60,512 bases of DNA from positions 1 to 60,512 of the forward strand of contig CAIMEH010000027.1 of assembly GCA_903839975.1 (NCBI GenBank), given 5' to 3'. Positions within the stretch are counted from its first letter, which is position 1; every line of letters begins with the position of its first letter. The notes below the pieces were generated by a model that searched no databases, was not told where the DNA came from, and saw nothing but the letters and a program-made list of their open reading frames with translations. Shown here one piece after another: positions 1,622-3,731 of this stretch. The position numbers were made by a program, and so were the translations under genes. The stretch is from an uncultured Candidatus Berkelbacteria bacterium. GTDB lineage: Bacteria > Patescibacteriota > UBA1384 > 2-12-FULL-50-11.

Positions 1622-1688
1622 ACTATTGGCCGTTTGTGAGAGAAACGGCCCTTCATCTCTGAGTAAATTTATATTTTGTGTTTTGTGC

Positions 1689-2001
1689 GTTGGTGCTTTA
1701 TGCGAGCATCGATGCAATTTGCAGTTTTAATGTTGGTGTCTTATGCGAAATGGGTACACCTCTTCCCATACCGAACAGAGCAGTTAAGCGTTTCAGCACC
1801 TAGGATACTCGAGGCTAACAGCCTCCGGGAAAGCGGGCCGACGCCAACATTAAGTCTACAAATGCACACCTCTTCACATCGCGACGTAACGCAGTGTAGG
1901 AGCGAACGACCGAAGGAAGATACCGAACAGAGCAGTTAAGCGTCTCAGCACCTAGGATACTCGAGGCTAACAGCCTCCGGGAAAGCGGGCCGGCGCCAAC
2001 A
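1689..2001 (+). pseudogene. Outer, interrupted 5S rRNA copy (5' piece 1689-1706; 3' piece 1866-2001 with 44-nt insert 1876-1919) enclosing the intact 5S
   Basis: GTTGGTGCTTTATGCGAG matches the 5S 5' end; 1866-1875 plus 1920-2001 are near-identical to the 5S 3' part; differences from the inner copy are compensatory between the two outer pieces. Confidence 0.85.
1731..1849 (+). rRNA. rrf: 5S rRNA (intact inner copy)
   Basis: 119 nt; helix I TGTTGGTGTC/GACGCCAACA; conserved CCCATACCGAAC and AGTTAAG. Confidence 0.93.
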
Positions 2002-2015
2002 CTTAGAACACAAAG

Positions 2016-2072: not shown

Positions 2073-2279
2073 ATGGGAAAACGAACACGAGTTATTACGG
2101 CCACCATCGTTGGAATTATTGGTATCGTTACAGTTGCTTTACCGGCTATAGGTGGCAATAGCCTTAACGCCGCCGGCTTACAAGGAACAGGTTTCGACAT
2201 CTCGAAATATCTTGTCTGGGGCGGAATTGCCATCCTAGTTTTTAGCGCCTTACTATTTGTTTCGGCCTCTTCAGATTAA
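2073..2279 (+). CDS. Small two-TM membrane protein
   Basis: 68 aa with two hydrophobic segments. Confidence 0.65.
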   Translation: MGKRTRVITATIVGIIGIVTVALPAIGGNSLNAAGLQGTGFDISKYLVWGGIAILVFSALLFVSASSD

Positions 2280-2854
2280 CGGCTGCTGCCACCTTTAATT
2301 GTGTAGTTTAGCACTAGGCCTGCGTCTATTTCTGCCGGTGTACCAAGGCTAACAGGTATTCTGTCAGGATCTTTTTTATTCTCCAGGGCGGCCATTAGTA
2401 TATAATTGCTATTAGTATTCTCGGCGTAAACGTATCTATTTATTTGTGGTGTGTTAGTTAAATCAGTATCAGTGCAGGCAGATTTTGTAAAATCTTTACT
2501 CTGCTTGGGGTCATCAGGAATTGTGCTCATGTAGTTAGGAGAGAATGTTGGATTGGATGATGGATGTTGACAAGCAAGGAGGCTATTACTACTCAATTGC
2601 CAAGCGGCGTCGAAGACTACTTTGGTGCTTCCGGGAGTAGTGGCGAAAGGAGTGGGGTCGAAGGCCGGGTACGATCTTTGGTCGGCGTAGTATTGACCTA
2701 GAACTGTTTGTATATGTTGCAAGTCAGTTTTGCGGGTGTTATCGCGCGATCTGGCCGAAACAGATGCCCAAGTGAAACTACCAAGGGCGATTAATATTCC
2801 CATAATCGAGATTACTATCAACAGCTCAATTAGTGTGTAAGCCCTTGTCTTCAT
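2276..2854 (-). CDS. Type IV prepilin-like protein (orphan)
   Basis: Class III signal KTRA|YTLIELLIVISIMGIL, RDNTRKTDL helix, IPDDP motif. Confidence 0.88.
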   Translation of the reverse strand: MKTRAYTLIELLIVISIMGILIALGSFTWASVSARSRDNTRKTDLQHIQTVLGQYYADQRSYPAFDPTPFATTPGSTKVVFDAAWQLSSNSLLACQHPSSNPTFSPNYMSTIPDDPKQSKDFTKSACTDTDLTNTPQINRYVYAENTNSNYILMAALENKKDPDRIPVSLGTPAEIDAGLVLNYTIKGGSSR

Positions 2855-2918
2855 ACATCCACATTAACAGTCTCTTGGGCTGGAAGGAATACTATATAAG
2901 TGATTTACTGTTGGTGCG

Positions 2919-3731
2919 ATGCAAAAAACTCTAGCTTTGATTCTAAAAAAACAGAATTTGGGCGAAACCGACCGAATTATGACTATATTCTCGCCGACTC
3001 TCGGAAAAAAAAGAGTAATTGCTAGGGCAGCCAGAAAACCGCTTTCAAAATTGGCTGGCCACTTAGATACCTTTATGGTTTCGCAGATTATGCTAACCGA
3101 CCACGAAGACCTACCAAAAATTACCAGCGCCGTGTTGGTGGAATCGTTTGAAAATATCCGTGGCACATATTCGAATTTAGAGAAAGCTTTTGCAATATCG
3201 AAAATTATTGAACGGGTAATTATCGAAGACGTATCGCAGCAAACAATTTTTCAGATTTCGGTTGATGCACTTGCTAGGCTAAACGACGAAGAGCCGTGGC
3301 ACAATGTTTGGTTGGCGTTCTTGTCGACGCTTACCAGAAATCTTGGCTTAACAACTTCTAATTTTGAGTGCTTGAAATGCCACGAAAAATTGGCCGGCAA
3401 AGGCTATTGGTTAGTAGACGATAGGGGATTTCATTGTCAAAATTGCGGTGCGCCCAGAGCCGACTATGTAACACTGCAGGAAAATTCTATGAAGATGCTG
3501 TATCTAATGCAGAAAAAAAATTATATGATTCAAGGCCAATCAAATAAAAATAATGGCCTTGAAAGTCGACCATATGCGAACTTTCTCAATAACAGCTATG
3601 GCCAATGGTCGGCTATCCGCCAGGTAAATATTCCAGAGAGTGTTGCCAAAGAAGTTGAAGAGGTGTTTTTGCGTGAAATAACAGAGTGGTTTAACAAGCC
3701 GTGGATTGCTTATTCGGGCGTTGAGCGATGA
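2919..3731 (+). CDS. recO: DNA repair protein RecO
   Basis: GETDRIMTIFS...G N-terminus, ARKPLSKLAGHL, CxxC...CxxC zinc finger. Confidence 0.9.
   Translation: MQKTLALILKKQNLGETDRIMTIFSPTLGKKRVIARAARKPLSKLAGHLDTFMVSQIMLTDHEDLPKITSAVLVESFENIRGTYSNLEKAFAISKIIERVIIEDVSQQTIFQISVDALARLNDEEPWHNVWLAFLSTLTRNLGLTTSNFECLKCHEKLAGKGYWLVDDRGFHCQNCGAPRADYVTLQENSMKMLYLMQKKNYMIQGQSNKNNGLESRPYANFLNNSYGQWSAIRQVNIPESVAKEVEEVFLREITEWFNKPWIAYSGVER

Follow-up and report, generated by a model that had tools for sequence, protein, structure and literature searches.

Some integrative elements, upon insertion, copy the 3' portion of the tRNA or tmRNA gene that they enter. The 5S rRNA gene is single-copy and essential in the reduced genomes considered here, where it is used as a marker presumed to be inherited vertically; automated annotation expects one clean 5S hit per genome. 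Researchers have described 5S remnants with insertions downstream of a normal 5S gene in two other bacterial families (Stepanov and Fox 2021; PMC7812874); in the available text of that paper the remnants are read as pseudogenes, homologous recombination with functional genes is suggested as possible, and database entries "with internal duplication" are said to have been discarded. Expanded 5S rRNAs have been reported from Halococcus, Thermoanaerobacterales, and others (PMC7812874; PMC7530397, as far as their available text goes). In bacteria of the kind studied here, rRNA genes are interrupted by extra DNA (Tsurumaki et al. 2022, 2024; PMC9297842, PMC11270868), and according to the available text of PMC11270868, none of 645 CPR 5S genes carried an insertion of at least 100 bp.

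The locus described here shares something with each of these systems and differs from all of them. Like the remnants of PMC7812874, it contains a 5S-like sequence with large insertions beside a normal 5S gene at the end of an rRNA operon; however, those remnants, in the available description, are found downstream of the normal gene, with a terminator in front of each and with one end or both missing, whereas the present remnant encloses the functional gene, keeps both of its ends, which are paired, and has no terminator between the two copies. The word "nested" is absent from the available text of PMC7812874, and the discarded entries with internal duplication may be cases like this one. The outer copy also resembles the expanded 5S rRNAs, as the available texts present them, in having extra helices that branch from an otherwise canonical 5S core. 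Those molecules, though, serve as the cell's functional 5S and have inserts other than 5S genes, while the outer copy here holds a normal 5S inside and has lost conserved core loop bases. The Tsurumaki cases, as far as the available text describes them, are matched by an insertion with a LAGLIDADG gene in the 23S rRNA gene of the same operon, whereas what interrupts the 5S gene is no intron and lacks an endonuclease gene, being instead another copy of that very gene. According to its available text, the screen of PMC11270868 started from covariance-model hits, which return only the inner gene at this locus. As in tRNA and tmRNA integration, a partial copy of the gene's 3' part stands displaced behind an intact RNA gene, but the nest has no integrase, its spacers measure only tens of bases, and its displaced pieces include one from the 5' end. 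A published description of a 5S gene inside a 5S gene was not found in the full-text literature, a search that left supplements aside. We consider it likely that a complete pre-5S unit was inserted into a resident 5S gene and took over its function, and that the outer copy is a co-transcribed, decaying remnant of the resident.

The window, which is the whole analysed stretch of 60,512 nucleotides, is the first 60.5 kb of one contig in a 680-kb genome of 34 contigs that is about 90% complete; among the matches listed, the genomes of phylum-level relatives measure 0.4-2.1 Mb, mostly below 1.4 Mb, and these sizes suggest a bacterium of the CPR/Patescibacteria kind. It begins on the plus strand with the 3' end of a 23S rRNA gene that is truncated by the contig start (1-1200; Rfam RF02541, 228.8 bits, model 2557-2925), in which the final 369 model positions are aligned and 846 bases are left unaligned. 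The unaligned bases form an 846-nt insertion at 63-913, near model position 2625, which encodes a LAGLIDADG endonuclease in the ORF 194-757 (Pfam LAGLIDADG_1, 1.2e-23) and is the usual CPR-type rRNA intron or insertion. The 23S-5S spacer contains a plus-strand ORF of 96 amino acids from the ORF list (1331-1621), for which no Pfam family was found at E<=0.01, followed by a hairpin at 1628-1650 (-12.7 kcal/mol, z -2.6, by folding). Because the 23S trailer up to about 1300 is similar to that of the related genome G003, where the 5S gene comes directly after it, the ORF looks like a spacer insertion. A motif like CTTCATCTCTGAGTAAATT lies upstream of the 5S leader in several members of the family.

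Rfam and nhmmer agree that the sole complete 5S gene of the genome is the inner copy, which lies on the plus strand at 1732-1849 (RF00001, 68.8 bits against a gathering score of 38, model 1-120). It belongs to RF00001 by its full length, its score above the gathering threshold, and the 31 of 34 model pairs that are canonical. Its left flank (1707-1731, plus strand) is the leader and its right flank (1850-1865, plus strand) the trailer of an inner pre-5S unit: in the fold of 1668-2016, bases 1713-1731 pair with 1850-1866, and the duplex has a z-score of -2.9. An initial reading made from the letters alone, hereafter the sequence-only reading, had taken these flanks for inverted repeats bounding a cassette. 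The pairing itself stood, but the flanks are not the ends of a mobile element. When the 20 nt on either side of the 5S gene were compared with shuffled sequences in 76 genomes of the host's class, flank pairing gave a z-score below -2 in 71 of them, with a median of -5. The inverted-repeat flanks are thus the normal leader/trailer stem of pre-5S RNA, and the inserted DNA is therefore a full pre-5S unit rather than a transposon. A blastn-short search of the genome revealed no second copy of the inner flanks, and so neither a donor nor a repeat family.

Two further features of these flanks deserve mention. A perfect 10-nt palindrome, GCATCGATGC, coincides with the left junction (1706-1715), where the outer 5' piece gives way to the inserted unit, and may be a trace of the joining mechanism; the filler at the equivalent place in the nested locus L049 is made up of two small hairpins that are complementary to each other. 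The 5S trailer arm is directly followed by a T-run in many genomes of the class, and the extended helix I stem may double as the operon terminator there. The inner unit of several nested alleles brings such a T-run along, which could halt transcription ahead of the outer 3' piece.

The outer copy is distributed over both sides of this unit, all on the plus strand. Its leader (1675-1688) is followed by 5S positions 1-18 at 1689-1706, comprising the 5' strand of helix I, loop A, and the start of helix II, as located by a 17-nt self-BLAST match and position mapping. Beyond the inner unit, ATG at 1862-1864 can be read as outer positions 19-21, or AAATG at 1860-1864 as positions 17-21. A single C (1865) then stands in place of the GGT of loop B, and positions 25-34, the 5' strand of helix III, follow at 1866-1875 and are identical to the inner copy. 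In loop C, a 44-nt insert (1876-1919) replaces CC; it has no second copy in the genome (blastn-short) and no significant fold (z -0.55). Positions 37-118 occupy 1920-2001 (97.6% identity to the inner copy over 82 nt; nhmmer E=1e-15). The outer trailer (2002-2014) pairs with the outer leader (duplex -10.7 kcal/mol, z -1.6) and overlaps a terminator hairpin at 2014-2045 (-16.7 kcal/mol, z -4.2) with a T-run to 2047; this hairpin came from folding, and a consensus terminator scan of 1150-2350 called nothing. The target gene has lost a few bases at most. The elements named in the sequence-only reading are therefore all present to within 1 nt, the inner 5S being placed at 1732-1849 by Rfam.

When the inserts are left out and ATG is read as positions 19-21, the joined outer copy keeps 113 of 118 positions, and it differs from the inner copy only at positions 8, 9, 18, 61, and 110, where it has C8, U9, G18, C61, and G110 in place of U8, C9, A18, U61, and A110; the two bodies are 96% identical. 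The pairs 8:110 and 18:61 are double compensatory changes, and the change at position 9 turns a G-C pair into G-U. In a simulation, the probability that both 3' differences would fall opposite changed 5' bases with pairing restored was about 1e-4. This result, together with an uninterrupted allele in public contigs (below), bears out the earlier claim that the scattered outer pieces belong to one gene. The claim that this gene has its own extended stem was borne out as well, by the minimum-energy fold of 1668-2016 (-108.8 kcal/mol, z -2.4), in which two long stems are nested: the outer leader and trailer (1675-1687 with 2002-2014) and outer helix I enclose everything else, and the inner flanks continue inner helix I as one uninterrupted helix. 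Outer helix I pairs at 9 of 9 positions in all seven of seven nested loci, but cross-pairings between outer and inner strands also score 6-9 of 9, so this pairing is no proof of selection on the outer stem.

Such preservation raises the question of whether the outer copy still works as an expanded or trimmed 5S, with its inserts tolerated or removed as in the 16S and 23S rRNA of these bacteria, so that the cell would have two 5S species. Both partners are present in all 34 model pairs, of which 31 are canonical, as many as in the inner copy; the differences are all structurally neutral, the interruptions fall in loops B and C and in helix II, which could accommodate a side branch, and expanded 5S rRNAs are known in other bacteria according to the available text of PMC7812874. 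We nevertheless regard a working outer copy as improbable. The conserved CC of loop C is lost and the GGT of loop B is reduced to C, the 44-nt insert does not fold stably, no intron family was recognized in 1200-2100, and the outer copies of relatives lose whole helix strands or persist as a probable vestige (G002). The comparison by covariance model that the sequence-only reading had proposed gave a result for one copy only: the inner gene scores 68.8 bits, whereas the contiguous outer region fails as an RF00001 match, cmscan making no 5S call even at E<=10. With three interruptions, in helix II, loop B, and loop C, and an intact allele in a relative, the outer copy fits the class of 5S pseudogene remnants of Stepanov and Fox (2021). 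From the two small loop lesions and the analogy with the relatives we infer that it has lost its function, although it is much less decayed than theirs and every one of its helices can still form.

The junctions were compared with assembled contigs of public runs aligned to the locus. A 151-nt contig of run X4 equals 1722-1872 with 0 differences and extends from the inner gene across the right flank into the beginning of the outer 3' part. A 272-nt contig of run X2 corresponds to 1843-2106 with 10 differences and contains the right flank, the insert-bearing outer part, and the terminator, so that a variant strain appears to carry the nest too. Because runs X1, X2, and X4 come from one study that possibly includes the source sample, while X3 comes from another, the support from the former is perhaps not independent. 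The junctions to which the sequence-only reading had pointed are thus spanned in part: X4 covers the right one, whereas the left one (1707-1721) is covered by the assembly itself and by no independent contig. At 1993, X2 has A for G, which is the inner-type base, and it shows changes and small insertions in the outer trailer (2002-2007); the base at 1993 may reflect gene conversion between the inner and outer copies, and it would break outer pair 8 unless the 5' piece of X2 differs too.

Could the nest be an assembly artefact, in which the 5S alleles of two strains were chained into one contig? The genome is assembled in 34 contigs, related alleles co-occur in public runs, the left junction is the one without an independent contig, and exact 20-mers across each junction had 0 matches in JGI metagenome contigs, a search that would miss near-exact relatives. 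However, neither the junction sequences nor the flanks nor the 44-nt insert have a second occurrence in the genome, and at the left junction the two alleles offer no shared stretch through which they could be chained; the X4 contig links the inner gene to the outer 3' part through the right flank, the X2 variant has the flank together with the insert-bearing part, and the layout recurs in 14-16 other assemblies, one of which is a single-contig genome (G038). We consider an artefact very unlikely.

The X3 contigs present what we read, from their sequence, as the empty site. One of them matches 1629-1706 with 4 differences and continues directly at 1750, which is 5S position 19. In the second, CTCTTCCC is directly joined to 1920-2046 with 0 differences, and the 44-nt insert that X2 contains is missing. 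Taken together, the two contigs amount to a 5S without interruption that has the outer leader and trailer and, at 8, 9, 18, 61, and 110, the outer-type bases. When its parts are joined by coordinates, the allele takes a canonical 5S fold (-39.0 kcal/mol, compared with -36.7 kcal/mol for the inner copy), and its helix II is perfectly paired with the outer 3' strand. Since the homology on the left ends at position 18, a recombinant of inner and outer copies is an unlikely source of this helix II. The X3 allele would then represent the resident gene, still intact in a close relative, of which the outer copy is the interrupted form. The central claim of the sequence-only reading, that a whole 5S unit was inserted into its own homologue, is supported by this allele, by the junction contig X4, and by a sequence comparison in which the inner leader and trailer are unlike the outer ones. 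The last point also upholds the claim that a tandem duplication does not account for the layout.

The arrangement is not singular. We collected the 5S loci of 78 genomes of the class (30 + 8 + 40), which make up nearly all of its genomes that gave a hit, leaving out six genomes and one second contig, and searched within 350 nt of each full gene for further pieces (E<=0.05) with a 5S profile built from class genes. The screen for split 5S matches around a full one, which had been suggested beforehand, detected extra collinear pieces around an intact 5S in 14 of 78 class genomes, or about one in five (16 with the weaker calls L011 and L025, which come from self-BLAST); one more row, L070, was dropped as a coordinate error. 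All 19 pieces are collinear and on the strand of the gene, the 8 with a 5' part being upstream and the 11 with a 3' part downstream. In an Rfam scan of the loci of eight relatives, each had exactly one 5S above the gathering score. The resident genes were split at three or more different sites, for the window has 18|19, L005 has 16|49, and most others are split at about 48-61|56-74, with about 58|62-68 as the usual site. In the window, region 27-58 is found on the right of the inner gene, but in G013 on its left, so that the insertion event of the window was separate from that of G013. The outer copies of the relatives contain up to four short G+C-rich inserts and have suffered deletions and losses of helix strands, and in G002 and G010 just a probable vestige upstream is left; by their sequence, they look unconstrained.

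The relatives also indicate which copy came first. For nested genomes G013 and G009, which belong to the family of the window's host, same-genus relatives (G015 and G012) have a single 5S gene at the same locus. The leader, ends, and trailer of these single genes match the outer copies of G013 and G009, and they have their own matching helix II. The inner copies of G013 and G009 are of a different 5S type, one that other genera have as their only 5S. Eight genomes of the families f38, f39, and f41 contain a distinct 5S lineage, and in five of the eight it is the inner copy inside the common type; the two lineages cut across genera and families. Although G013 and G009 belong to different genera, their nested alleles can be aligned over the full length, right junction included, and share a 33-nt insert in the outer 3' part, while the outer ends resemble the same-genus relatives. 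At the level of sequence, this pattern fits a nested allele moved by homologous recombination, or a site-specific event. In the window, a closely related donor or later gene conversion would explain the combination of 96% identical bodies with unrelated flanks.

These comparisons bear on a further explanation, in which the inner copy is the original and two independent partial tandem duplications produced the leader with the 5' end on one side and the 3' part with the trailer on the other. Such duplications would likewise yield upstream 5' pieces and downstream 3' pieces, L005 and L050 have identical inner and outer leaders, and four cases are one-sided (L012, L082, L090, and L095). However, recent self-duplication would leave the inner and outer flanks identical, and those of the window differ. 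The X3 empty-site allele has the outer leader, outer-type bases, and outer trailer, and it is the outer rather than the inner alleles of G013 and G009 that match the single gene and flanks of the same genus. Moreover, the pieces abut in the window (18|19) and do not overlap in any of the six two-sided cases. Paired partial duplications seem to us a poor candidate for these reasons, and insertion of a pre-5S unit into a resident gene remains the preferred reading.

Several other candidates were rejected. A transposon or IS with terminal repeats is at odds with a cassette that consists of the 5S unit only and has no room for a transposase, and with flanks that are single-copy and form a generic pre-5S stem; no clear target-site duplication was found at the cassette. 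A group I or group II intron or a homing-endonuclease insertion was dismissed as no intron family appeared at E<=10 in 1200-2100, and the neighbouring spacer ORF has no Pfam family. A tandem 5S duplication does not yield the order of 5' piece, full gene, and 3' piece with unlike flanks, which also differs from the plain tandem pair of G231 (below). An att duplication by an integrase was rejected in view of the missing integrase and element body and of the 5' piece, which is displaced as well.

We propose that the resident 5S gene was split after position 18 by about 155-160 bp of DNA comprising a leader arm, a 5S gene, and a trailer arm. Neither a T-run nor a hairpin lies between the inner gene and the outer 3' part, and one transcript would span both outer parts with the inner unit between them and end at the hairpin and T-run at 2014-2047. 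In this RNA, the outer leader and trailer with outer helix I would close the whole, and the inner leader and trailer with inner helix I would form a second long stem. Double-strand-specific processing, as presumed for every 5S of the class, would cut the inner stem and release the inner 5S for the ribosome, and the outer halves, which are without some loop-B and loop-C bases, would be discarded as by-products. Landing in a transcribed resident gene would be survivable, since the processing stem comes with the incoming unit. The outer copy could then gather short inserts and deletions and fade, so that the resident 5S would be replaced, a course that appears to have been taken repeatedly within the class. 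As to how the unit entered, it might have been foreign or copied pre-5S DNA captured at a break, or an already nested allele might have spread by homologous recombination through the outer halves; the palindrome on the left junction and the hairpin fillers of relatives give, at most, a hint of repair synthesis.

The recurrent layout points to an undescribed way of replacing an essential 5S gene. If the route is recurrent, even a core RNA gene would undergo turnover by insertion, probably with exchange between lineages, which would account for odd 5S fragments in such genomes and for the survey that found no 5S insertions of at least 100 bp. A bolder proposal, which we hold only tentatively and think somewhat doubtful, is that the pre-5S unit is a self-targeting, horizontally moving cassette that prefers a site at about positions 58-68, replaces the resident function, and spreads between genera by homologous recombination via the split halves. 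If true, this would be for RNA genes what homing is for introns, except that the insert holds no endonuclease. The five marker bases that separate the two copies would make the processing of the pre-5S stem readable by RNA-seq in bacteria in which few ribosome-biogenesis factors are known.

Outside the class, a phylum BLAST with the 5S of the window over 401 genomes returned adjacent double matches confined to the class, except for G231, which has a plain tandem 5S pair. No nested 5S was seen among about 90 hit-bearing genomes outside the class, which is a weak negative because the screen sees only pieces of the conserved core. A collection-wide pattern for short-range 3' duplications was too degenerate to inform on distribution. 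One of its 120 or more matches lies near a 5S gene, at 1989-2174 of L111 (a Treponema sp. MAG), where the motif pair overlaps the 3' end of the 5S and the stretch just downstream, possibly a 3' partial duplicate outside the CPR.

Some minor features of the relatives were also recorded. The inserts in the outer 3' pieces of L050, L051, and L091, and also of L090, L093, and L095, are short and G+C-rich, and motifs such as CYTGTCC...CGAAGC...GG and GCTGAAGC, as well as direct 11-nt repeats, recur in the outer copies. A similar insert at about 5S position 70, between GCCGA and TGG, occurs in three families (f41, f39, and f34) and is either old and shared or a small site-specific element. In the L005 locus (genome G031) the leader and 5' piece are repeated, and an N run separates the copies about 300 nt ahead of the 5S, so the number of upstream repeats in this assembly is uncertain. 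In genome G025 (C28:6945-7078), a 5S match of 134 nt (68.1 bits) is about 17 nt longer than the others and is possibly an expanded 5S. In the window itself, the genes directly downstream of the locus, at 2276-3731, encode RecO and, on the minus strand, a pilin-like protein that bears an N-terminal methylation motif; these are ordinary genes, and DNA uptake and recombination are both relevant to a possible exchange of 5S alleles.
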